A DNA stretch of 64,000 bases from a phage, in the sequence record PQ400055.1; one strand, written 5' to 3'. Below, piece after piece: positions 5,854-47,258 of this stretch (the first letter of the stretch is position 1; the number at the start of each line of letters is the position of its first letter). The position numbers and the translations under genes are program-made. The notes below the pieces were generated by a model. That model did not search any database and was not told the DNA's origin. It saw only the letters and a program-made list of their open reading frames with translations.

Positions 5854-6216
5854 TTATCGCCCGATCTGATATTTCTCGATCAGCGTCCACTCTTCTTTCT
5901 GTTTGAAAGACAATACACGGAAATTATTAACTTCGGTAGTTTCAAAATCACTATCAATCAGGGTACACAGATTCCACTGCGCCAGAAGTTTTGCAATGTT
6001 ATTACGGCGTAATTCATCTTCCCACGTCATTTTAACACTACGACCATCTAATTTCAACAACTCCTTGAAATGAACGATGTAATAGCGCCCTTTCTTCTGG
6101 AGAATATGACAAGACTGATACAGTGTCTTGTCTCGATTGTTGGCAATGCCGCAGCGGGTTAAAGTTTCCTTAATTTTAAGGAAGTTTTCAGGACTAATCA
6201 AATTAATTTCAATCAT
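5854..6216 (-). CDS. regA: RegA translational repressor
   Basis: 120 aa; MIEINL...YQSCHILQKKGRYYIVHFKE closely resembles T4 RegA; position between 43 and 62. Confidence 0.9.
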   Translation of the reverse strand: MIEINLISPENFLKIKETLTRCGIANNRDKTLYQSCHILQKKGRYYIVHFKELLKLDGRSVKMTWEDELRRNNIAKLLAQWNLCTLIDSDFETTEVNNFRVLSFKQKEEWTLIEKYQIGR

Positions 6217-6217
6217 T

Positions 6218-6796
6218 TTACCACCTTTCTATAATCTTTTTAAGTCGTTTCCTTTCTGTCTGATTCTTAGTAACACCCGCCAAAAGTTCATCGGTCGCAT
6301 ACGGTTTAATGTGCTTCAATAACTTGTCCATATATCCCTTTTCATTAGCCAAATCGAGATAAAACCGGGCGTCATCCATATTTACACAATATGCTTTCGC
6401 CACTGCCATTAAAACCAATTTTTGGTCCAATTCTTCTGTTAGTTTAGCCCATTTACCGTATCGTTTCCCCTTAGAAATACTCTGTAAGAGATAATCAAAA
6501 TGCATTTGATCTGGGAGGCCATGACCGATTAAATTCATCACATACGCGCTATATAGGCAATCTGCGTGCTGGGAAAGAGCGGTGTTAATCCATCTCTGGT
6601 TATATGCAGAATTGTTTCCCACATTAACGCGCTGTTTATCTAAGGTGATATGATCCATCAGAGCAAATAATGCATTGTCGGTTTTCTCGGTGAATGTGTC
6701 CGCTAATTCAGACACCTTTTCCCAATCACGAGAGCGCCATGCAATTTCATGCTCGTTTAATTGTGTATCATCTTCACCGAAAAATTGACCTAACAT
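6218..6796 (-). CDS. 62: clamp loader small subunit gp62
   Basis: 192 aa ORF between regA and gene 44; size and position match T4 gp62; start overlaps gene 44 stop. Confidence 0.7.
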   Translation of the reverse strand: MLGQFFGEDDTQLNEHEIAWRSRDWEKVSELADTFTEKTDNALFALMDHITLDKQRVNVGNNSAYNQRWINTALSQHADCLYSAYVMNLIGHGLPDQMHFDYLLQSISKGKRYGKWAKLTEELDQKLVLMAVAKAYCVNMDDARFYLDLANEKGYMDKLLKHIKPYATDELLAGVTKNQTERKRLKKIIERW

Positions 6797-14846: not shown

Positions 14847-16316
14847 CTATTCCCCATTACCATTATACTTTCTTTGCTTAGTTATCCACACTCTAACCAT
14901 CTCTACAGATTCGCCGTCAGACGGATCAAGAGTTTTTCCTTTTTTCTTCATGCGGTACTTAAATCCGTTAAATCTTGCATTCTCTTGCTCGTTAAAGTCG
15001 AACATCTTTTTAAATGATTTTCGCCCTTTACGTTCACCACATTCTAGCGGAATCATTCGATCTGTTATTACATTGGCATTAGGCAGAAACGTTTTTAGAT
15101 AATCCACCAACGCCCAATCAGGAACATATAGATTAACATTCTCCTTGCTCTCGTTGTCTCTCAGGTTACAACGCAAACATAATTGAAATGCTGGTTCCAG
15201 ATAATCAGACACATGACGCGCTTTCAAAAACTCGTTTGTCGGGAGATCACAACTATTAGCAAGACCTTTTAAAATATCAATCTCCCATCGTTGAGGGTTA
15301 AAGCTGAACATCACAGCAACATTTTTATGATGAATGTAAGAGTTAAGACCATAAGACCCGTAAGGTATCCGCTCACCAATACCATTTGTACACGCTTCAC
15401 GGTCCCGATTCACGGTATAAATGAAGTCATCGCCACATTCATTTTTAACCATATCAACAAGACGTTCAAAGGTATTGTTTGTTTCTGACTGGTGACGCGA
15501 CCATCGTTCAGAGTCCGTCATAAGGATGATATTAACTCTATCTGTATTTTTATACTCTTTGAAATATAGTCTGGATTCTAGCGCACTCGGAACAAAATCG
15601 CAATTTGCATAGTATCGTAGATACTTCCCACTATATGTATCAAAGAGATTTGCACATGCTATCGTAACCTTTTTAAAGTCTCCCCACGTACCGTGTTTGT
15701 TATCGTTCAAGAAAACAATTTTCGACCCATTCTTCCGGTGTCCTTCGTTATGTTTTACCATAACGTTGATTTTCTTCTCTAATAACGCCTCATAAAGCCC
15801 TCTAAGAGAAGAATCGATCATATCAGTACCATCCTTCGCACTTTCTATCTTTTCTTTGATAGCGGCCTTCTCAGAGTCTTTTAGAACTAAGTTCTGTAGG
15901 CATTCCGATTCGTCGGCGATTGGTTCGCAATGCTTCGTGATAAGTTCAAGATTAGACTTAAACGGATACTCATTAAATTCAACCAGTTGAGGAACTTCAT
16001 CAATGTAAAGAGCATAATCACCAAACATTTTTGAACGTTCCATATTAGATAACGCTGTATGTGTAATGAATATCACATCAGCACCATCTTTAACTGATTG
16101 CATTATCGACGCTTGCACTGTCTTAAGGCTTCTTAGTCTTGTGCTATCAATCAAGACAGCACGACCGCCCATTCTTTTAAACTTATTGTAAGATTGTTCA
16201 CTTAAAACACGAGATGGCGAAGCAATAACCGCTTTTTCTTTTGTCTCTAGGACGTGGGAAAGTATAGCATCAGTTTTCCCCGCCGCTGGCAATGCGATTA
16301 ATGTTTCAATCTTCAT
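14847..16316 (-). CDS. uncharacterised P-loop NTPase with helicase-like N-terminal domain
   Basis: 489 aa; motif I ALPAAGKT, Ia-like ASPSRVLSEQ, DExx-like LYIDEVPQ; lysine/arginine-rich C-terminus; no T4 core counterpart recognised. Confidence 0.6.
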   Translation of the reverse strand: MKIETLIALPAAGKTDAILSHVLETKEKAVIASPSRVLSEQSYNKFKRMGGRAVLIDSTRLRSLKTVQASIMQSVKDGADVIFITHTALSNMERSKMFGDYALYIDEVPQLVEFNEYPFKSNLELITKHCEPIADESECLQNLVLKDSEKAAIKEKIESAKDGTDMIDSSLRGLYEALLEKKINVMVKHNEGHRKNGSKIVFLNDNKHGTWGDFKKVTIACANLFDTYSGKYLRYYANCDFVPSALESRLYFKEYKNTDRVNIILMTDSERWSRHQSETNNTFERLVDMVKNECGDDFIYTVNRDREACTNGIGERIPYGSYGLNSYIHHKNVAVMFSFNPQRWEIDILKGLANSCDLPTNEFLKARHVSDYLEPAFQLCLRCNLRDNESKENVNLYVPDWALVDYLKTFLPNANVITDRMIPLECGERKGRKSFKKMFDFNEQENARFNGFKYRMKKKGKTLDPSDGESVEMVRVWITKQRKYNGNGE

Positions 16317-16624: not shown

Positions 16625-16783
16625 TTACTTAATGATACTTACTTTACCAGATCCATGACAATGAGCGCAACACCCATCACCACGCAATCCTGTTCCGTTA
16701 CAGTGTTTACACTTCTTCAACGGTAAAGCCATTATAGCAAATAAAGCAATAATGAATACCGAAACTAAATTCTCAATAATCAT
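16625..16783 (-). CDS. small membrane/Cys-rich peptide (52 aa)
   Basis: Below track cutoff; hydrophobic N-terminal segment then CKHCNGTG...GCCAHCHGSG zinc-ribbon-like motif. Confidence 0.3.
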   Translation of the reverse strand: MIIENLVSVFIIALFAIMALPLKKCKHCNGTGLRGDGCCAHCHGSGKVSIIK

Positions 16784-17042
16784 AAATCGCCCTCAGTTCT
16801 TTATAGCCTCCAATGTGCTCGTTGTCAATGAATATCTGGGGGTATACAAACCGGAGGCTCTTTGAGTTTAGCCTCCCCGCCAGTTCTTCAATCATATCAC
16901 GGTCGGGAATAATGTCAACCCCGACCTGCTTGAATACTGGTTTAAGTGTATACGGAATACCCAGATCATCCAGTAGCTTCATTGCACTAATACAACCATA
17001 ACAATGATAAGCCTCTTTCGGTATACCGTATATCTCGATCAT
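16773..17042 (-). CDS. nrdH: glutaredoxin-like protein (NrdH-like)
   Basis: 89 aa; active site CYGC; C-terminal YPQIFIDNEHIGGYKEL glutaredoxin signature; lies near nrdG as in T4. Confidence 0.65.
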   Translation of the reverse strand: MIEIYGIPKEAYHCYGCISAMKLLDDLGIPYTLKPVFKQVGVDIIPDRDMIEELAGRLNSKSLRFVYPQIFIDNEHIGGYKELRAIYDY

Positions 17043-17560
17043 TTCTCAGCCTTTAATCTTTCTAGTTCTTCTTCCAGTTCCTTGATCCGTTGGTCACGTT
17101 CAAAGTCACGCTGTAGCTTAGTGGCAAATACTCGCTTAAACTGATTGTAATCATCGATTTTAAACACTTCTTCTTCGCCATAGCGACGTACAGAAACTTC
17201 GTAGTTGTTGAAAAATTGTTCCAACATTGCATCAGTAGTCAGTTCTGACGACACCACTTTAAAATAACGTTCTTCTGATTGCAAAAACCAGTTGTGCGCG
17301 TATTCCCGTACATCATCAACATCTCGACAGGTGTATGTTTTTCCATCAATTTCAATCGCAGAAACATATTCGATATCTGACGCAATTTTTTCAAAAGCGA
17401 TAACTTTAAATGTACGGTCACCGATAAAGTCTGCTATTGCATCATTTGCAACACTGGTTGCAAATGCTTTCCGCGCTCGCTCGTTTTTCCACTGATAGGT
17501 CATACCAACAACAAACATATTACCATCAACAAACATATTACCAACCTCGCTCTTTACCAA
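17039..17560 (-). CDS. hypothetical protein, member of local paralog family (coiled-coil C-terminus)
   Basis: 173 aa; shares GxTYxWK...IEIDGKTY...F pattern with neighbouring ORFs; C-terminal KELEEELERLKAEK. Confidence 0.5.
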   Translation of the reverse strand: MVKSEVGNMFVDGNMFVVGMTYQWKNERARKAFATSVANDAIADFIGDRTFKVIAFEKIASDIEYVSAIEIDGKTYTCRDVDDVREYAHNWFLQSEERYFKVVSSELTTDAMLEQFFNNYEVSVRRYGEEEVFKIDDYNQFKRVFATKLQRDFERDQRIKELEEELERLKAEK

Positions 17561-18362
17561 TCAAAAATTCAACTTCACGACGTTTAATGTCTTCTTGAAG
17601 GTCTTTAATCTTCTGGCGATCTTGCATGATTTCATCCATCTTGTCAAGTGCCGCAATGAAATCATCGAAACGTTCAAAGGTTTTACCTTCATTTGCTTCG
17701 CCAAATTTAACCATTGTCAGGCCGTAACGACTACTAAACAGACGTTTCAACTGTCCAACGATCTTAGAATCAGTGGTTATAACTTCCAATTCTTCTACTT
17801 CACGAAAGAATTTTCTATCAGAATCAATAAACCAGCTAGTTCCTTTATGGTCTCTATCTTCGGTTGCGCTCATTAGAGTATGGTCTTTACCATCAATTTC
17901 AATTACATCAATTTGCCCACATGGACTAACATTTTTAACAGTAAAAGGTCTATAATTTATTGCTCGTGCAATAACATAATTAAGGTTAGATACGTTTTCA
18001 GCATAATGGCAGAAGTCGGTCATAGCATTCGCATCTTTCCAAGTATAAGTTTTACCAACTTCCCATTTCTGGGGAACTTCTTCAACTTCACGAAAGAATT
18101 TTCTATCGAATGGACTAAAGAAATATGTGGCAGTCCAAATGTCTTTTCCTGTAGCAGTTTTCGCCGTATGATAAACACCGTCTAGCTCTATTGCATCAAT
18201 CCAACCGTTACCATCGATCTCGATGATGGTAAATGGCTTGTCACCAATAGCTGCACTAATATCGCTGTTAAGTGGAGAAAGAACACCTTCTCCGTTAGTA
18301 ATAAACTCAGTTTTAGCGTTTTCATCTTTCCAGGTGTAGGTTTTACCAATTTCCCATTTCAT
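17538..18362 (-). CDS. hypothetical protein with tandemly duplicated ~95 aa domain (paralog family)
   Basis: 274 aa; two copies of MKWE(I/V)GKTYTWKD...IEIDG...DRKFFREVEE followed by a coiled-coil tail. Confidence 0.55.
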   Translation of the reverse strand: MKWEIGKTYTWKDENAKTEFITNGEGVLSPLNSDISAAIGDKPFTIIEIDGNGWIDAIELDGVYHTAKTATGKDIWTATYFFSPFDRKFFREVEEVPQKWEVGKTYTWKDANAMTDFCHYAENVSNLNYVIARAINYRPFTVKNVSPCGQIDVIEIDGKDHTLMSATEDRDHKGTSWFIDSDRKFFREVEELEVITTDSKIVGQLKRLFSSRYGLTMVKFGEANEGKTFERFDDFIAALDKMDEIMQDRQKIKDLQEDIKRREVEFLIGKERGW

Positions 18363-18374
18363 AATATATTCCCC

Positions 18375-18875
18375 TTAACCGATTTTATCAAGTTCGTTTA
18401 ATGCTTTCTCTGCTTCCTGTATAGCTTGCACTCTTTCCGGCATTTTGTCAAGAAAATCTTTCAACTCTTCAAAACTGGAGATATGACGCAAGGCATTAGC
18501 ACCGATAGCCGCATGTGATTTGCATTCAAAGCGAATTTTATAATTATCCATCGCCAATTTGAGAAGGTCTATTAGATCATATTCATGACCAGGCAATAAA
18601 ACTTCTTTGAAGCACGCTCGGTCGCCATCGGAAAACCATATATTATCACCAACATCGATAGAACTAATATAATCCCCTTCGTGATTATAGATTGAACGTA
18701 CATTACCCCAACGGTCTACCGTAGCGACAGTAAATGGTTTATCTAGATATGTAAACACACCATCAATATTAGGTTTTTGTTCGTAACGCCAACAATCACG
18801 CAAAATGCGCTTTTCGTCCTCACCAACCAACTTATATGTCTTCCCTTCTTCCCATTTCATAATATCATCTCTCAT
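18375..18875 (-). CDS. hypothetical protein (paralog family)
   Basis: 166 aa; N-terminus MKWEEGKTYKL..., same domain then helical C-terminus. Confidence 0.55.
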   Translation of the reverse strand: MRDDIMKWEEGKTYKLVGEDEKRILRDCWRYEQKPNIDGVFTYLDKPFTVATVDRWGNVRSIYNHEGDYISSIDVGDNIWFSDGDRACFKEVLLPGHEYDLIDLLKLAMDNYKIRFECKSHAAIGANALRHISSFEELKDFLDKMPERVQAIQEAEKALNELDKIG

Positions 18876-19402
18876 TTTTTGATACGTGATTCTAATTGGA
18901 TCATACGGTCGCGCGTTTGCTTGTATTCGCGGATAGCACCGATCCGGCTAGGCATACCATCAAGCACGCTCTTAATCCCTTCTAGGGTAGTGATTTTAGC
19001 AATGCTATTATGTAACCCCATCTTATCGATCAACTGAATGTCGTAGGCTTCCATAAGCAGACCCAGACGTTCTAAAGTTAGGTCTTCTTCTTTTTCTTCC
19101 GATTCTGGAATCTTAGGTTCAATAATAACTTCGGTAAAGAAACGACGCTCACCCGACCAAAACCACACACCGGAACAGCCAATAGGGGATTCTTTTAACG
19201 TCATAGAGTCGAAATCACTACCGATAATAGTAATTTCTCTAACATCACCATCATCGTCAATGTCTTCTACCCTAAACGGGCGACCAGCCAACAAGTCAAC
19301 AATACATCTGTTAATAGACGACGAAAATTTAGTCAGTTCGGCTTTCGACGCTTCGCATTCAATCTTGTAAGTTTTACCAACTTCCCATTCCATAATAATC
19401 AC
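18872..19402 (-). CDS. hypothetical protein (paralog family)
   Basis: 176 aa; N-terminus MEWEVGKTYKI..., ...GERRFFTEV, helical C-terminus. Confidence 0.55.
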   Translation of the reverse strand: MIIMEWEVGKTYKIECEASKAELTKFSSSINRCIVDLLAGRPFRVEDIDDDGDVREITIIGSDFDSMTLKESPIGCSGVWFWSGERRFFTEVIIEPKIPESEEKEEDLTLERLGLLMEAYDIQLIDKMGLHNSIAKITTLEGIKSVLDGMPSRIGAIREYKQTRDRMIQLESRIKK

Positions 19403-19403
19403 C

Positions 19404-19913
19404 TCAAATAATTTTCACTGGAATACTATTAACAATCTTGTATTGTACTTGATTGTCAGACCCCCGCCACGGCTTCTTCGTTGGCATATCTTTAATATAA
19501 CGCCCATCGATGAACATGTCAACTGATTCTACAATTTTTCTTTGCTCATCATTCAATTGGTCAAGGGTATAACCGGACCATAGCCAAATATCTTTATTTG
19601 GCATCCATGATTTTACTTCATCGATGATCCGCTGTACACCCTTTAAATTGCGTTTATACAGTGGATCGCCACCTAAGAATGTTAGCCCCTGAATAAAATC
19701 AGGTCTAAGCAGGTCCAGAATCAATCCCATTGTATCATCGGTGAATGGTTCCCCGTTCTTAGGATTGAGTAGGCTAGCATTAAAGCAACCATCACATGCG
19801 TGTGAACATCCGGTAACGTAAAGGGAGACTCTCACTCCCTCACCGTTAACCATATCACAATCTTTAATATCGGCATAGCGTAGTTTGCCGTATGTATCAG
19901 AACTCATATTCAA
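19404..19913 (-). CDS. nrdG: anaerobic ribonucleotide reductase activating protein NrdG (radical SAM)
   Basis: 169 aa; CSHACDGC (CxxxCxxC) cluster; adjacent to nrdD region as in T4. Confidence 0.85.
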   Translation of the reverse strand: MNMSSDTYGKLRYADIKDCDMVNGEGVRVSLYVTGCSHACDGCFNASLLNPKNGEPFTDDTMGLILDLLRPDFIQGLTFLGGDPLYKRNLKGVQRIIDEVKSWMPNKDIWLWSGYTLDQLNDEQRKIVESVDMFIDGRYIKDMPTKKPWRGSDNQVQYKIVNSIPVKII

Positions 19914-20124: not shown

Positions 20125-20673
20125 TTATTTTAAATTTTTTCGAATGTAGTCAGACCATTCCTTCCCTGTCAGTTCGGTCCCATTCTGGAAACTGAAATAT
20201 TCATACGGCATCGAGTCAAGATAAAACAGGATCATACATCGCGCCATATAATACCAATCACGATTAAAGTAAACTACGTTATCGCCAGTACCATCAGCAC
20301 CTTTATCATAACCATCGCGGGTACGGGCGACCCATTGAATAGTATCATTTTTCTCACGGATCGTAACAGGTTCCCAATATCCAGCACATCCAGCATGACC
20401 ACACGAACAAGTAATGAAATATTGTCCTTTTGCTTTGTTGTCATCCCATTCACGATGGATTGGTTCGATCTCGTGAAACAGTGCTAAGCAATCATGATTA
20501 TGCAACACTGGCTTACCATCAATCAATGCATGGAATGTATACAAACGACCCGTAGACAAATAGCTATCCTCACGCTCAACCAGTTCAATAGCAATCTTTT
20601 TAGCTCGTTCTTTGTGTCGTTGTGCTTTACGCTTACGGTTTAATGATTTCATATTCACCTCACACATTATCAA
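20125..20673 (-). CDS. hypothetical protein
   Basis: 182 aa; basic N-terminus, CSCGHAGCAGY cysteine cluster. Confidence 0.5.
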   Translation of the reverse strand: MIMCEVNMKSLNRKRKAQRHKERAKKIAIELVEREDSYLSTGRLYTFHALIDGKPVLHNHDCLALFHEIEPIHREWDDNKAKGQYFITCSCGHAGCAGYWEPVTIREKNDTIQWVARTRDGYDKGADGTGDNVVYFNRDWYYMARCMILFYLDSMPYEYFSFQNGTELTGKEWSDYIRKNLK

Positions 20674-21209
20674 AGGTCGCGATATAGTACATTATGAAAA
20701 TGAGAACTTGCATTACCAATATTGTAGATAATAAATTCTTCATCCGGCGCTTGCGCTACAAATTGAGTATGAGCAACCGCCACAACCTTAAAAATACGAT
20801 CCGTGATCTTGTGTTTAATTTCTGCCCCTACTTCCATAGGAACATATTCATTTGTTTCTGTTTCAGTCGCAAAACAGCCATCTTCTTCATAAGCACGAAC
20901 AAATCGATCGCAATCAGTACGCTTAACAAATTCAAGAGTATACAATTCTCGTGAATTGTCGGTATAGACCAATACAGAATTATTATGATAGCGAATCACA
21001 TACAGGTTATTATCATCGTCAATTACGCAAAAGCTACGGATTCCTTCGCCTTTACTCCAGCAGATATTAACCACCGTTCCTCTAATAAAAAAACTTTCCT
21101 TTAAATTAAAACTAGTCAATGTGCTAGCGTGCATTTTAACAACAACACCATCGCCAATTTCCAGTTTACGAAGTTTAACTTCTTTGTTCAGTACACAAAA
21201 CATCATCAT
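20670..21209 (-). CDS. hypothetical protein
   Basis: 179 aa ORF immediately downstream of a promoter; start overlaps stop of next gene. Confidence 0.5.
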   Translation of the reverse strand: MMMFCVLNKEVKLRKLEIGDGVVVKMHASTLTSFNLKESFFIRGTVVNICWSKGEGIRSFCVIDDDNNLYVIRYHNNSVLVYTDNSRELYTLEFVKRTDCDRFVRAYEEDGCFATETETNEYVPMEVGAEIKHKITDRIFKVVAVAHTQFVAQAPDEEFIIYNIGNASSHFHNVLYRDL

Positions 21210-21238: not shown

Positions 21239-21266
21239 ATTATACATTAGCTAATCATGTTGTCAA
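21239..21266 (-). promoter_or_regulatory. sigma70-type promoter (TTGACA-16-TATAAT)
   Basis: Exact -35 and -10 hexamers on the minus strand; leader GCTCACATCGAAAACAACGAGAGGA. Confidence 0.5.
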
Positions 21267-21270
21267 CACC

Positions 21271-21305
21271 CCAAAACGAAAAAGCCGACCCTTTCGGATC
21301 GGCTG
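21271..21305 (-). terminator. rho-independent terminator after nrdD
   Basis: AGCCGATCC-gaaa-GGGTCGGCT hairpin followed by TTTTTCGTTTT on the minus strand. Confidence 0.55.
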
Positions 21306-23183: not shown

Positions 23184-23206
23184 TGAAAAAGCGGGATTTC
23201 TCCCGC
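23184..23206 (-). terminator. terminator-like hairpin upstream of nrdD
   Basis: GCGGGA-tttc-TCCCGC followed by TTTTTC on the minus strand. Confidence 0.45.
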
Positions 23207-23216
23207 TCGTTGATAG

Positions 23217-23711
23217 TTATTTTACCAGTTCTGCTAATTCTTTTTCTTTAGCTTCTAGTTCAGCTTTAAGCTGTTTAATCTCTTGTCGCTTCTTATTAGC
23301 GGCTTCCTGCTTACTATTTCGGATAACCTGATCTAGATACAACTCCCAATCCTGAATATTTTTGATAATGTATCCGTCAACATTAATTGGTCGGAGATTC
23401 AGTACAGCTTCCAGTTTAGTCGCAAAAACTTTAATTGCTGGCGTGAAGTATTCATATTCGTTATCTTCAAACCAATAACCTAGACTTGCATTATCAATAC
23501 GAAGACGAAGTTCAAGATCAAGGTCTTTATCTTCGGTGTAAAGATCTTTCACCTGACCCAGCGAACTAACAACAACTTTAAAACGAATTTTATCTACACC
23601 ACCAAACACATCAGTAAGTATACCAGCAATTGAGCTATTAGCGCAAGATTGGTCGCTGAATGCGTCAAGGTTTTCTTTAGTTACAGTATACCAAACATCT
23701 TGTACCCACAT
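23217..23711 (-). CDS. hypothetical protein with coiled-coil C-terminus
   Basis: 164 aa; C-terminal KKRQEIKQLKAELEAKEKELAELVK. Confidence 0.5.
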   Translation of the reverse strand: MWVQDVWYTVTKENLDAFSDQSCANSSIAGILTDVFGGVDKIRFKVVVSSLGQVKDLYTEDKDLDLELRLRIDNASLGYWFEDNEYEYFTPAIKVFATKLEAVLNLRPINVDGYIIKNIQDWELYLDQVIRNSKQEAANKKRQEIKQLKAELEAKEKELAELVK

Positions 23712-23741
23712 AATATAATCCTCTCGTTGTTAAGTGGGAGT

Positions 23742-23769
23742 ATTATAGCATACTCCCTTCGCATGTCAA
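23742..23769 (-). promoter_or_regulatory. sigma70-type promoter (TTGACA-16-TATAAT) with -10 inside GGGAGTA/TACTCCC palindrome
   Basis: Reverse complement TTGACA..GGGAGTAtgcTATAATACTCCC; -35 overlaps the upstream stop codon. Confidence 0.5.
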
Positions 23770-24944
23770 GCACTAACTTTTTTCTTTACTGCTTTCACCT
23801 TCTGGCGAATTGCTCGAATCTCTTCGATCTCTTTTTCAGTCTCTTTAACAATTTCTTTGCGATTCTGAATATCTGTATCTAGATTATCATCAAGTTTAGG
23901 CAGCATGTCAATCAAGAACTTTTTAAAGTCTTTCAGGTTTCGGATAACAGCACCTTCACCCATTACCGCCACGCCTACACCATCCGGCAGATCACCAAAC
24001 AGCTTAACCAGTTCAGACAGATGATCATGATCTTCTAGTGCTTCTTCCGGTTCAGATGGCAGTTCAACAAAGTTATAACGTTCATCATTGCTGATCAAGT
24101 GATACCAGCAAAGACCGAAAGATTTCGGTGTATATTCTACACCATCAATTTCAACCGCGTCAACACTTCCATAATCATCTACTTTAGTTACCTTAAATCC
24201 TTGTCCCAGCTTTTGAACAATTTCAACAACATGACTTGATACAGTTTCAGCGGTAAACCAATATGGCAAATTATGCTGATTTGGTTTGTAGCGTTCACCT
24301 ACTTTAAATCTCTGACCATCCGCTTGCATAGAATGAAATTGTTGTTTCGTGATTTCCGCGAAGTATTCAAATTCGCTACCGTCAAACAAGCAATTCCATT
24401 GATCACAAAAACGGTCCGCCTTGACGGTTTCACCTTTCGCGGTGATCATGGTAGCTGATCCGTGCAATTCTTCTTCAACTAAAAAGCCATATTCGACAAA
24501 ATCAACAAGTTTCATGGCTTCTTTGTGCTCTGGGTCATGCTCTCCCCAGAATCGCTTAAATTCTTGCAAACCTTCTGGGGTAAACGAATAACATTTACCT
24601 TTTTCAAAGTAAGTCGGCATTGCATCCTCTTTCTTGTTCATCGCTTCGTATGCCTCTTTTGAGATACGTTTAAAGTATTTGCGCTCATTGTGCATAATCA
24701 TAGTAGACCAATAATAAACGATATCCTCAGCGGAATAAACTACATCTCCAGCTTCAATAGTAATAACATGACCGTGGTCATCTTTTTCTAATACTTTAAA
24801 GCCCTTTTCTACGATTTCAGCAACCCGAATATGACCACGGCGCGAAGCATCGGTCAGAATAATTGAATAGCGAGAAAAGTCTAGAAACTCATCTTTACCG
24901 CCTTCACGGAATGCATAGTAATGACCTTCAAAGAATTTAGCCAT
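23766..24944 (-). CDS. hypothetical protein (paralog family, two domain copies plus coiled coil)
   Basis: 392 aa; repeated RKYFKRISKEAYE-type elements shared with 25001..25585; C-terminal charged helix. Confidence 0.55.
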   Translation of the reverse strand: MAKFFEGHYYAFREGGKDEFLDFSRYSIILTDASRRGHIRVAEIVEKGFKVLEKDDHGHVITIEAGDVVYSAEDIVYYWSTMIMHNERKYFKRISKEAYEAMNKKEDAMPTYFEKGKCYSFTPEGLQEFKRFWGEHDPEHKEAMKLVDFVEYGFLVEEELHGSATMITAKGETVKADRFCDQWNCLFDGSEFEYFAEITKQQFHSMQADGQRFKVGERYKPNQHNLPYWFTAETVSSHVVEIVQKLGQGFKVTKVDDYGSVDAVEIDGVEYTPKSFGLCWYHLISNDERYNFVELPSEPEEALEDHDHLSELVKLFGDLPDGVGVAVMGEGAVIRNLKDFKKFLIDMLPKLDDNLDTDIQNRKEIVKETEKEIEEIRAIRQKVKAVKKKVSA

Positions 24945-24975
24945 AATATAATCCTCTCGTTGTTTAGATGGGAGT

Positions 24976-25004
24976 ATCTTACTACTCCCGTTTCATCATG
25001 TCAA
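24976..25004 (-). promoter_or_regulatory. sigma70-type promoter (TTGACA-17-TAAGAT) in palindrome
   Basis: GGGAGTAgTAAGATACTCCC with -10 in the loop; 17 nt spacer. Confidence 0.45.
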
Positions 25005-25585
25005 GCGTTAAATGACTTTTGGATCTCTTTCAGTTCTTCCACTTTCTCGGCGCTGAATTTAGCGTAGGTATCATGTCGAATAATTTCACTTTCAAGAAAG
25101 GTTTCCAGTCGAGATCTATTTTCAATAAGGAACTCTTTCAGGTCTTCCGCGTTCTTGATAAAGATTTTATTGTCGGTAATGTCATCTTCAATCGCAAAGG
25201 AGATAGAGCGAACTTTACCAAACAAGTTAATCAGATCTTCCAGAGATTCTTCTTTCTTAACTGGTTTCATTTCTTCAAACTGCTTTTTAGTGATGCGTTT
25301 AAAGTATTTGCGCTCGCTTGCATCAATCATGATTGACGCACCCTCATAATCATGAGTTTCTACCAAATACACTTTACCCATAACATTAACCGTAAGAACT
25401 TTAAAGCCCCTGTGAAGCACACCATACAGGAACTTGTTATGTTGTGGGTAGCGTTTAACAAATTCCTCTGCGGACTCAGCATTACGGAAAGTGTAATAAC
25501 GACCTCGTTCAAAAACAGCATCATTTGAAGACTTAGCCGGATACAATTTATACGTTTTCTGTACCATAATATAATCCTCTATCAT
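25001..25585 (-). CDS. hypothetical protein (paralog family)
   Basis: 194 aa; shares ERKYFKRITKKQFEEM with 23766..24944. Confidence 0.5.
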   Translation of the reverse strand: MIEDYIMVQKTYKLYPAKSSNDAVFERGRYYTFRNAESAEEFVKRYPQHNKFLYGVLHRGFKVLTVNVMGKVYLVETHDYEGASIMIDASERKYFKRITKKQFEEMKPVKKEESLEDLINLFGKVRSISFAIEDDITDNKIFIKNAEDLKEFLIENRSRLETFLESEIIRHDTYAKFSAEKVEELKEIQKSFNA

Positions 25586-25854
25586 TTCACTAATTGAACA
25601 GCACGGAACAGAATGCGCTCACACGGAAGCAGCATAAATTCCCAACGCGGATCAAAGTCTTTAGCGGTGTACGTTTTCCCATCAACCGAGATTTCACTTA
25701 CATAACCAACAGGTGACACTTTAAGAACAGTAAACCCATTCTTGATGACTTCGTAGGTATCTTTCACCCCTTCGTATTCATCATCTAAGAAGTCTTTATG
25801 TGCTTGCTCAGATTTAAAAACATAGGCCACACCGGATTTAAACATCTTACGCAT
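25582..25854 (-). CDS. hypothetical protein (paralog family, single domain)
   Basis: Start at internal ATG (M21); MRKMFKSGVAYVFK...ISVDGKTYTAKDF. Confidence 0.45.
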   Translation of the reverse strand: MRKMFKSGVAYVFKSEQAHKDFLDDEYEGVKDTYEVIKNGFTVLKVSPVGYVSEISVDGKTYTAKDFDPRWEFMLLPCERILFRAVQLVK

Positions 25855-25885
25855 TGTTGATTCTCCTTCTTGATTAGATGGGAGT

Positions 25886-25914
25886 ATTTTACTACTCCCA
25901 TTTCTTATTGTCAA
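25886..25914 (-). promoter_or_regulatory. sigma70-type promoter (TTGACA-17-TAAAAT) in palindrome
   Basis: GGGAGTAgTAAAATACTCCC; immediately downstream of the endonuclease VII stop. Confidence 0.45.
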
Positions 25915-46813: not shown

Positions 46814-47188
46814 TTAAGAATATTTTACTTCGTCTACAATGTCTTTCATGACATTGATTTCCATTCCGGTCAGAACACGTTGGAACATGTGCTGCACATA
46901 CGCTTTCAGGTATTCATTTGATGGCTTACTATCGAAAGTCTTTTTAGTGTAGTAGTCATCACCGAAAGCTACTGTAATTACATTTTCGTCGTCGCTCCAA
47001 GCGATATAAGCAAATTTGCCGTTATCCCAGAAGCGAGCACTAATTGCTACTTTTGTTGAATCGAATCCTACTTCGCTGTGAGATTCAAGAACTACTTGTG
47101 TGCCAGTTTCTTTATGAATGTAGTAGCGGGATACTAAGTCAAAGTTACGGGTGTAGTGACATTCGAATTTATCTTTAAACATCATCAT
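46814..47188 (-). CDS. hypothetical protein
   Basis: Start at internal ATG (M23) preceded by AGGAGAATCAAA; the track N-terminus covers the promoter/leader. Confidence 0.45.
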   Translation of the reverse strand: MMMFKDKFECHYTRNFDLVSRYYIHKETGTQVVLESHSEVGFDSTKVAISARFWDNGKFAYIAWSDDENVITVAFGDDYYTKKTFDSKPSNEYLKAYVQHMFQRVLTGMEINVMKDIVDEVKYS

Positions 47189-47225
47189 TTTGATTCTCCT
47201 AAGTGTGTTTCGTTTCGATATGTGC

Positions 47226-47254
47226 ATTATGCTATAGTCGTTTATGGTTGTCAA
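47226..47254 (-). promoter_or_regulatory. sigma70-type promoter (TTGACA-17-CATAAT)
   Basis: Leader GCACATATCGAAACGAAACACACTTAGGAGAATCAAA. Confidence 0.45.
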
Positions 47255-47258
47255 TACC

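Follow-up and report, generated by a model that had tools for sequence, protein, structure and literature searches.

GoF/Frd.2-family genes form a clustered array around nrdG and nrdD in Krischvirus, with variable heads on near-constant tails

Genetic knowledge of the phage T4 protein GoF dates back to the rho/nusD work, and the family to which it belongs was defined structurally in 2025 from three dispersed T4 genes. Here we describe four adjacent genes, A to D, in a 64,000-nucleotide stretch of phage DNA from sequence record PQ400055.1 (referred to as the window in the rest of the text), which sequence comparison places in that family and whose N-terminal domains (heads) occur among related phages as sharply different alleles on near-identical C-terminal regions (tails).

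GoF, along with Frd.2 and MotB.1, has been grouped into a phage family with an 'LSm-like fold', whose nearest PDB neighbours are FeoA-type SH3-like domains (Kim et al. 2025, PMC12152347). T4 GoF is an early protein of 141 amino acids (aa) that is abundant, at ~20,000 copies per cell, and runs partly as a dimer, as does MotB.1. Its D25Y and G84R mutants act post-transcriptionally and rescue T4 on rho(nusD) hosts through stabilisation of the gene 41 mRNA, an effect on mRNA stability shown only for GoF(D25Y), while the function of the wild-type protein is unknown and mutants are viable (PMC12152347). Reporter assays showed little effect of wild-type GoF. Under laboratory conditions the T4 homologues are non-essential, and a CRISPRi-ART screen found a single fitness gene of unknown function in T4, frd.2, whose knock-down lowers the fitness of the phage. 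The report that defined the family makes no mention of RB49, arrays or duplications (PMC12152347). The second system to which this locus can be compared is the modular shuffling of promoter-stem-loop elements (PeSLs) in RB49 and phi1 (Arbiol et al. 2010, PMC2839356), the text of which does not mention the array genes.

Genes A to D are minus-strand open reading frames (ORFs) that together occupy positions 17039-19402, between nrdG (19404-19913) and nrdH (16773-17042), with junctions that overlap or leave at most 13 nucleotides (nt). This 2.36-kb interval of the window, itself Krischvirus DNA, is 93-98% identical to ~59 genomes of Krischvirus (RB49-like Straboviridae), in which all orthologues carry the label 'hypothetical protein', including RB49p051 to RB49p048, still hypothetical in RefSeq. 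An earlier note on this DNA, made from its letters alone, had described four adjacent ORFs with a common N-terminal domain, one of them (gene C) containing two copies, and had interpreted them as local amplification in a plastic region flanking nrdG. Pairwise BLASTP confirmed the shared domain in all four ORFs: the N-terminal ~95 aa of A, B, D and both halves of C are 25-35% identical to one another over ~90 residues (E-values of 1e-8 to 3e-12), and the two heads of C, both ending in DRKFFREVEE, are 52% identical (3e-29). Paralogous amplification together with an intragenic duplication in the nrdG/nrdD-flanking region was also a correct description. In T4, 55.8 alone separates nrdH from nrdG, and no gene lies in the interval from nrdD to 49. 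The array of four was real but incomplete, as a profile of the five A-D copies finds four further genes in the window, E to H, beyond nrdD. The full array thus comprises eight genes and 11 head copies in two blocks around nrdG-nrdD (Table 1). Gene E is its weakest member, with an E-value of 0.0011 against the five-copy profile and 1e-11 against a broader family profile. The shared domain is N-terminal and ~92 aa long; Y9, F40 and F86 are invariant and G6, V42 and G49 near-invariant in the alignment of the 11 copies, and the similarity spans the whole domain rather than low-complexity strings. The tails are homologous among the paralogues as well, A and B aligning over 163 aa (4.5e-15) and B and C over 159 aa, and each ends in a long helix as predicted by AlphaFold2 (AF2).

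The earlier note had not recognised the domain, which profile and PHROGs matches identify as the N-terminal domain of GoF and Frd.2. T4 GoF scored 26 bits with the five-copy profile and 40.1 bits, over residues 4-91, with a profile built from the 11 window heads only; the latter also detected Frd.2 (21.8 bits) and the RB49 protein Dc2 (24.7 bits, see below), and gave no significant match to MotB.1 (8.6 bits). GoF itself falls in phrog_622 (4.6e-38), a family matched at 1e-5 to 9e-20 by seven window proteins out of eight, E being the exception; GoF also matches phrog_5347, the family of A to D, over residues 4-137. While phrog_5347 is listed as of unknown function, A to D have secondary matches to 'goF mRNA metabolism modulator' families, and F and G fall in phrog_8944, annotated 'goF'. 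The RB49 orthologue of gene F, RB49p058, is named 'frd.2 / goF mRNA metabolism modulator' in RefSeq, and Frd.2 and gene F are also related by BLASTP (2e-5). Searches of Pfam, NCBIfam and PDB sequences with A to D returned nothing meaningful. The Pfam profile PF03197 (FRD2), which scores 133 bits on T4 Frd.2, picked up neither GoF nor any of the eight window proteins, and the FeoA profile PF04023 gave no window match above its gathering threshold.

Both the sequence homology and the predicted five-stranded antiparallel barrel, linker and C-terminal domain that mark the family of Kim et al. were found in these proteins. Sequence comparison thereby shows A to D to be paralogous members of the GoF (ComC-alpha)/Frd.2 family of early accessory proteins of T4-type phages, that is, unannotated members of an already described, functionally enigmatic kind. 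That the resemblance arose by chance or from low complexity, with no real family behind it, is practically inconceivable given the full-length alignments, with E-values as low as that of the two C heads, the independent profile matches to T4 GoF and the same predicted fold in three modelled heads. The window proteins have in common with GoF an N-terminal domain homologous over its whole length, a head-linker-tail plan, and the same predicted fold and PDB neighbours, FeoA first. They differ from it in their longer tails, ending in a helix of 20-40 residues, and in carrying up to two or three heads. The genomic setting differs too: in T4 the one goF gene adjoins gene 39, whereas RB49 has none there and eight to nine clustered paralogues, and the T4 genes for Frd.2, a profile-detected homologue and the namesake of PF03197, and for MotB.1 are dispersed single copies, unlike the window array. 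Krischviruses hold three times as many members as the three from which the family was defined, clustered and some of them two- or three-headed, and a GoF-family annotation can now be given to four 'hypothetical proteins' found in ~59 genomes of therapeutic-type coliphages.

Heads and tails were compared separately in six genomes, with identities expressed relative to the window, and surveyed by tblastn in 59 GenBank Krischvirus records. Across the six genomes, swapped heads show 0.37-0.77 identity against 0.89-1.00 for tails. The head of A falls to 0.44-0.45 in KMB43 and the IMG/VR contig L010 (tail 0.89), that of B to 0.41-0.42 in RB49, phiS and ELT4 (tail 0.97), the second head of C to 0.37 in L010 (tail 0.97) and that of D to 0.65-0.77 in RB49 and L010 (tail 0.94). 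The tblastn survey found the heads and tails of A to D in 59 of 59 Krischvirus records, barring head loss or disruption in a few. The B head is at least 90% identical in 29 records and ~42% identical in 30, with no intermediates, on a tail that is at least 95% identical in all 59. For D, nine records have a head of at least 95% identity and 50 a head of 60-80%, and the tail is at least 90% identical in 58 of 59. The A head is at least 90% identical in 52 records and below 80% in nine, two of these being non-Krischvirus phages, and the second head of C is at least 90% identical in 54 and below 60% in five. At the nucleotide level, low-identity runs at 19390-19091 (A), 18850-18581 (B), 18040-17831 (second head of C) and 17440-17231 (D) stand out from a background of 96-97%. 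The first three match the head coordinates within ~30 nt, and the fourth covers the 3' two-thirds of the D head. The breakpoints lie at domain edges, in the conserved coding stretches KWExGKTY... and ...(D/E)RxFFxEV.

Gene C varies in the number as well as the identity of its heads. Among 14 C orthologues, 53% of columns are invariant in head 1, 29% in head 2 and 82% in the tail; head 1 alone is replaced in P0034 (69% and 97% for heads 1 and 2) and head 2 alone in P0039 (99% and 41%). One-headed forms occur in ELT4, in AV108 and in metagenomic proteins such as P0059, where head 1 is fused straight to the linker found after head 2 in the window. In the six genomes the head alleles assort independently (B2+D1 in phiS, B2+D2 in RB49, A2+B1 in KMB43). 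ELT4 additionally has D split into two ORFs, showing that D is dispensable. The E-H block also appears to have divergent alleles, as gene G of the window is only 71% identical to that of G5211, with a synonymous divergence (dS) of 0.95, while flanking genes are 92-100% identical. Altogether, sequence comparison shows that in all four genes A to D the heads are sharply different alleles on near-identical tails, a cassette-type polymorphism of which we found no earlier report and which appears to be new; it is undescribed for GoF. These natural head swaps separate a variable module of the protein, probably specific for a ligand, from a constant one, provide ready pairs of alleles (B, A, C head 2, D) with which interactions and host range can be tested, and constitute a concrete lead that makes the function of the family more testable.

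The ends of the two C heads carry a 30-nt repeat encoding DRKFFREVEE, the two copies of which are identical at 29 of 30 positions, a likely substrate for unequal recombination. The fusion of head 1 to the linker in P0059 is the expected outcome of recombination between these repeats. Where the two heads have identical residues, identical codons are used at 17 of 21 positions at the head edges and at 11 of 28 mid-head (Fisher p = 0.004), consistent with homogenised edges or crossover sites. An 18-bp tandem duplication, in perfect register, gives gene D two in-frame ATG starts. It is absent in G5211 and RB49, and phiS, whose D is equally long (165 aa), may have the duplication in common with the window. 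The idea of cassette exchange in plastic regions, and the phage group in which it occurs, are those of PeSL shuffling (PMC2839356); the unit exchanged in A to D is, however, an intragenic protein domain with coding breakpoints rather than an intergenic promoter-stem-loop.

Whole-gene ratios of nonsynonymous to synonymous substitution (dN/dS) against RB49 and G5211 are 0.04-0.41 for the family genes and 0-0.09 for nrdD, nrdG, nrdH, gene 49, nrdC and dam; the value of 0.80 for A against G5211 rests on a dS of 0.009. The family genes are therefore under relaxed purifying selection, not positive selection. The diversifying selection that had been proposed in the earlier note finds no whole-gene sign as positive selection by point substitution; a different form of diversification, whole-head replacement on constant tails with the balanced 29:30 dimorphism, is strongly supported, while the host-range or anti-defence roles that the note gave as examples are speculative. 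Some genes show local jumps in dN as well as dS, which the separation into heads and tails accounts for. Where divergence is raised, in B, D and G, dS is high too, indicating allele replacement rather than fast in-place evolution, and the low whole-gene dN/dS likewise suggests that diversification proceeds by cassette exchange and not by point substitution. These values also bear on whether the genes are functionless selfish ORFan cargo, duplicated and shuffled by active phage recombination and PeSL cassettes. The region is indeed hyperplastic and rich in PeSLs, members can be lost or disrupted, and the T4 homologues are dispensable in the laboratory. We nevertheless consider such an origin very improbable, since the window, G5211, RB49 and the IMG/VR locus L010 each have the eight genes in intact form, A to D are retained in the 59 records with few losses or disruptions, dN/dS is well below 1, tails are at least 90-95% conserved, and the T4 homologues include a protein as abundant as GoF and one, Frd.2, whose knock-down costs fitness.

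AF2 models of A (from a multiple alignment of 35 sequences) and C (34 sequences) are of moderate confidence, with predicted local distance difference test (pLDDT) values of ~72-91 for heads and 50-73 for tails. The three modelled heads share the order b1, two helices, b2-b3-b4, short helix, b5, and the modelled tails of A and C consist of a helix, a beta-hairpin and a long helix. The head is thus predicted to be a small beta-barrel of SH3/FeoA-like topology, joined by a linker to a tail with a long amphipathic helix. Hfq and the Sm/LSm RNA chaperones, the proposed functional analogy for GoF, have a small five-stranded bent beta-sheet in common with these models, but the arrangement that defines their superfamily, an N-terminal helix followed by five bent strands with Sm1 and Sm2 motifs and a ring oligomer, was not found in the heads. 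Several observations bear on whether RNA is the ligand. A K or R occupies the position of GoF G84 in six of the 11 window heads and in 28 of 89 heads family-wide, and an aromatic residue that of D25 in four of the 11 (F or Y) and in 13 of 89, which, with the genetics of GoF(D25Y) and G84R, speaks for RNA. On the other side, 10 of the 11 window heads are acidic or neutral, the effect of wild-type GoF in reporter assays is small, and the conserved residues are aromatic, glycine or valine, in or beside predicted strands, so that no shared surface site is evident. We consider it improbable that the proteins are true LSm/Hfq-like chaperones whose heads form rings and bind RNA directly, as has been proposed for GoF.

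Genes A, B and C share their translation-initiation region (GAGG..ATTATTATG), which is followed by M(K/E)WE. The start of gene A is an ATG preceded by the Shine-Dalgarno sequence GAGGTG, the GTG at 19402 being a mechanical ORF start only, and the stop of gene D overlaps the start of nrdH (ATGA). No promoter or terminator consensus lies between genes A to D. The tight junctions, the lack of internal signals and the position of the nearest upstream sigma70 consensus, all of them motifs only, suggest a single early unit, and that promoter is probably the start of p055-p054-p053-nrdG-A-B-C-D-nrdH. The second block is organised differently: E, F and H are each preceded by a PeSL with TTGACA, a GGGAGTA-loop-TACTCCC stem overlapping the -10 element, and then GAGAGGATTATATTATG. 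The features of a PeSL, a strong sigma70-like promoter with a stem-loop, intergenic and repeated, were all found before E, F and H, and PeSLs are absent between A and D.

The reading we favour, and hold to be reasonably probable, is that the array consists of GoF/Frd.2 paralogues that grew in number and exchange head cassettes, the heads acting as specificity modules in the arena of mRNA fate. The array grew through tandem duplication of whole genes, seen in the copying of the translation-initiation region along with the tail, and through duplication of heads within genes. Homologous recombination at the conserved edges of the heads keeps it polymorphic, with heads exchanged, gained or lost as cassettes on a nearly invariant tail in each gene. 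A to D would be co-transcribed early with nrdG and nrdH from the sigma70 promoter, the tail may anchor or dimerise the protein, and the heads may be specific for variable ligands. By analogy with GoF(D25Y), the arena would most likely be mRNA fate in the pre-replicative period, the proteins acting on RNA directly or, more likely for the acidic heads of A to D, on RNA-handling host proteins.

Much of the same evidence could be read in another way, in which RNA is not the ligand and the heads are counter-defence or host-takeover binders that bind polymorphic host proteins or are sensed by immunity, with frequency-dependent alleles. Acidic SH3-like heads suit protein binding better than RNA binding, and the sharp, balanced dimorphism of the B head on an invariant tail, the independent assortment of head alleles, the dispensability indicated by ELT4 (D split, C single-headed), the early and plastic location, and the multi-copy occurrence of the family in other phages, with at least four matches in Pectobacterium phage PM2 in a search of BFVD, would all fit. 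We regard this alternative, the main rival, as possible but not probable: the proteins have no homology to any known anti-defence protein, the sole functional data in the family indicate mRNA stability, and recombination with divergent relatives can yield mosaicism without selection. More tentatively still, and as a doubtful proposal, the array might be a multi-specificity arms-race toolkit, in which the constant tail would plug into a conserved partner or dimerise and the exchangeable heads would recognise, inhibit or evade polymorphic host factors, for instance a defence sensor or a component of RNA decay or termination. Balancing or frequency-dependent selection would then maintain the alternative alleles (29:30 for B), which would pass from one co-infecting Krischvirus to another by way of the conserved head edges of ~30-40 nt. 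If this were true, the head-swap pairs would be natural isogenic probes for GoF-family function.

Table 1. Coordinates of the array genes and associated sequence features in the window
Feature	Positions	Strand	Description
Gene A	18872-19393	minus	173 aa; head 19109-19393, tail 18872-19108; orthologue RB49p051, hypothetical; phrog_5347 (7e-67)
Gene B	18375-18860	minus	161 aa; head 18585-18860, tail 18375-18584; head dimorphic across Krischvirus
Gene C	17538-18362	minus	274 aa; head 1 18072-18362, head 2 17778-18071, tail 17538-17777; intragenic duplication
Gene D	17039-17536	minus	165 aa from ATG 17536, 159 aa from ATG 17518; head ~17237-17521, tail 17039-17236
Gene E	23217-23711	minus	164 aa; divergent member, head and K/E-rich helical tail; RB49p057; phrog_3710 (2e-4)
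Gene F	23766-24944	minus	392 aa; three heads and tail; phrog_8944 (3e-214)
Gene G	25001-25567	minus	188 aa; one basic head (pI 9.6) and tail; orthologue RB49p059 annotated goF
Gene H	25582-25854	minus	90 aa, head only; RB49p060
30-nt boundary repeat, copy 1	18078-18107	minus	GATAGAAAATTCTTTCGTGAAGT[T/A]GAAGAA; end of C head 1
30-nt boundary repeat, copy 2	17790-17819	minus	end of C head 2
18-bp tandem duplication	17503-17538	minus	GGTAATATGTTTGTTG[A/T]T x2 (TAATATGTTTGTTG..); spans C stop / D start
Sigma70 promoter	21239-21266	minus	perfect consensus TTGACA-16-TATAAT, without hairpin; just after nrdD terminator (21283-21304)
PeSL upstream of E	23733-23769	minus	TTGACA-N16-TATAAT; stem GGGAGTA/TACTCCC over -10
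PeSL upstream of F	24966-25004	minus	promoter and stem-loop
PeSL upstream of H	25876-25914	minus	drives H-G
Terminator-like hairpin and T-run	23184-23206	minus	between E and nrdD; GCGGGAGAAATCCCGC TTTTTCA; read by eye, unlisted by terminator scan

A scan of the whole RB49 genome recovered nine members, the same eight genes and Dc2. The scan found no member at the positions of T4 goF, motB.1 or frd.2. Dc2 (211 aa; NC_005066, 11993-12628; rank 16 in BFVD) follows the same plan of a head and a K/E-rich helical tail and is encoded directly upstream of gene 41. Its place beside the gene 41 helicase is notable, GoF(D25Y) acting on gene 41 mRNA in T4. In T4, no family member was found in the scanned 38-56 kb region holding nrdH-nrdG-nrdD-49.

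When 1.84 billion representatives were searched exhaustively with a profile (E ≤ 1e-3), 95 proteins were returned. About 74 are genuine, of which 62 have a single head, 10 have two heads and two have three. Fifteen matches of at least 466 aa were rejected, as short parts of the profile matched them several times and they look like bacterial repeat or surface proteins. With the domain profile, a word-indexed search for homologues yielded only 21 matches, and a locus search with the four-copy alignment only two loci, both from Krischvirus. The BFVD search gave 63 matches (E ≤ 1e-3), and the 50 listed comprise Dc2 and uncharacterised proteins of rV5-like phages, a jumbo phage and T4-like phages that infect many hosts, with several per genome among those listed. 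In addition, an unannotated ORF of 146 codons in an annotation gap (5998-6435 of locus L011) of Serratia phage vB_SmaM-ChuuTotoro (Vequintavirinae) is a clear member by the window profile (2e-15); the family therefore reaches beyond Straboviridae, contrary to its framing in the literature as 'Tevenvirinae'.

Two weak profile matches elsewhere in the window, at 42980-43312 and 46817-47257, were rejected as members, having their own unrelated PHROGs. The two ~180-aa ORFs between nrdG and nrdD (20125-21209, minus strand) are not GoF-family either; they match phrog_8242 and phrog_14838, correspond to RB49p054/p055, and take the place that the homing endonuclease mobC has in T4. On the other side of the array, a 52-aa ORF (16625-16783, minus strand; RB49p046 orthologue, phrog_3931) combines an N-terminal hydrophobic segment with two CxxCxGxG motifs (CKHCNGTG and CAHCHGSG), the signature of a DnaJ-type zinc finger. 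A 489-aa ORF (14847-16316, minus strand; RB49p044 orthologue, phrog_2467) starts with a Walker-A-like PAAGKT and lies in the interval from gene 55 to the nrdH block, which in T4 is occupied by the small 55.x genes.

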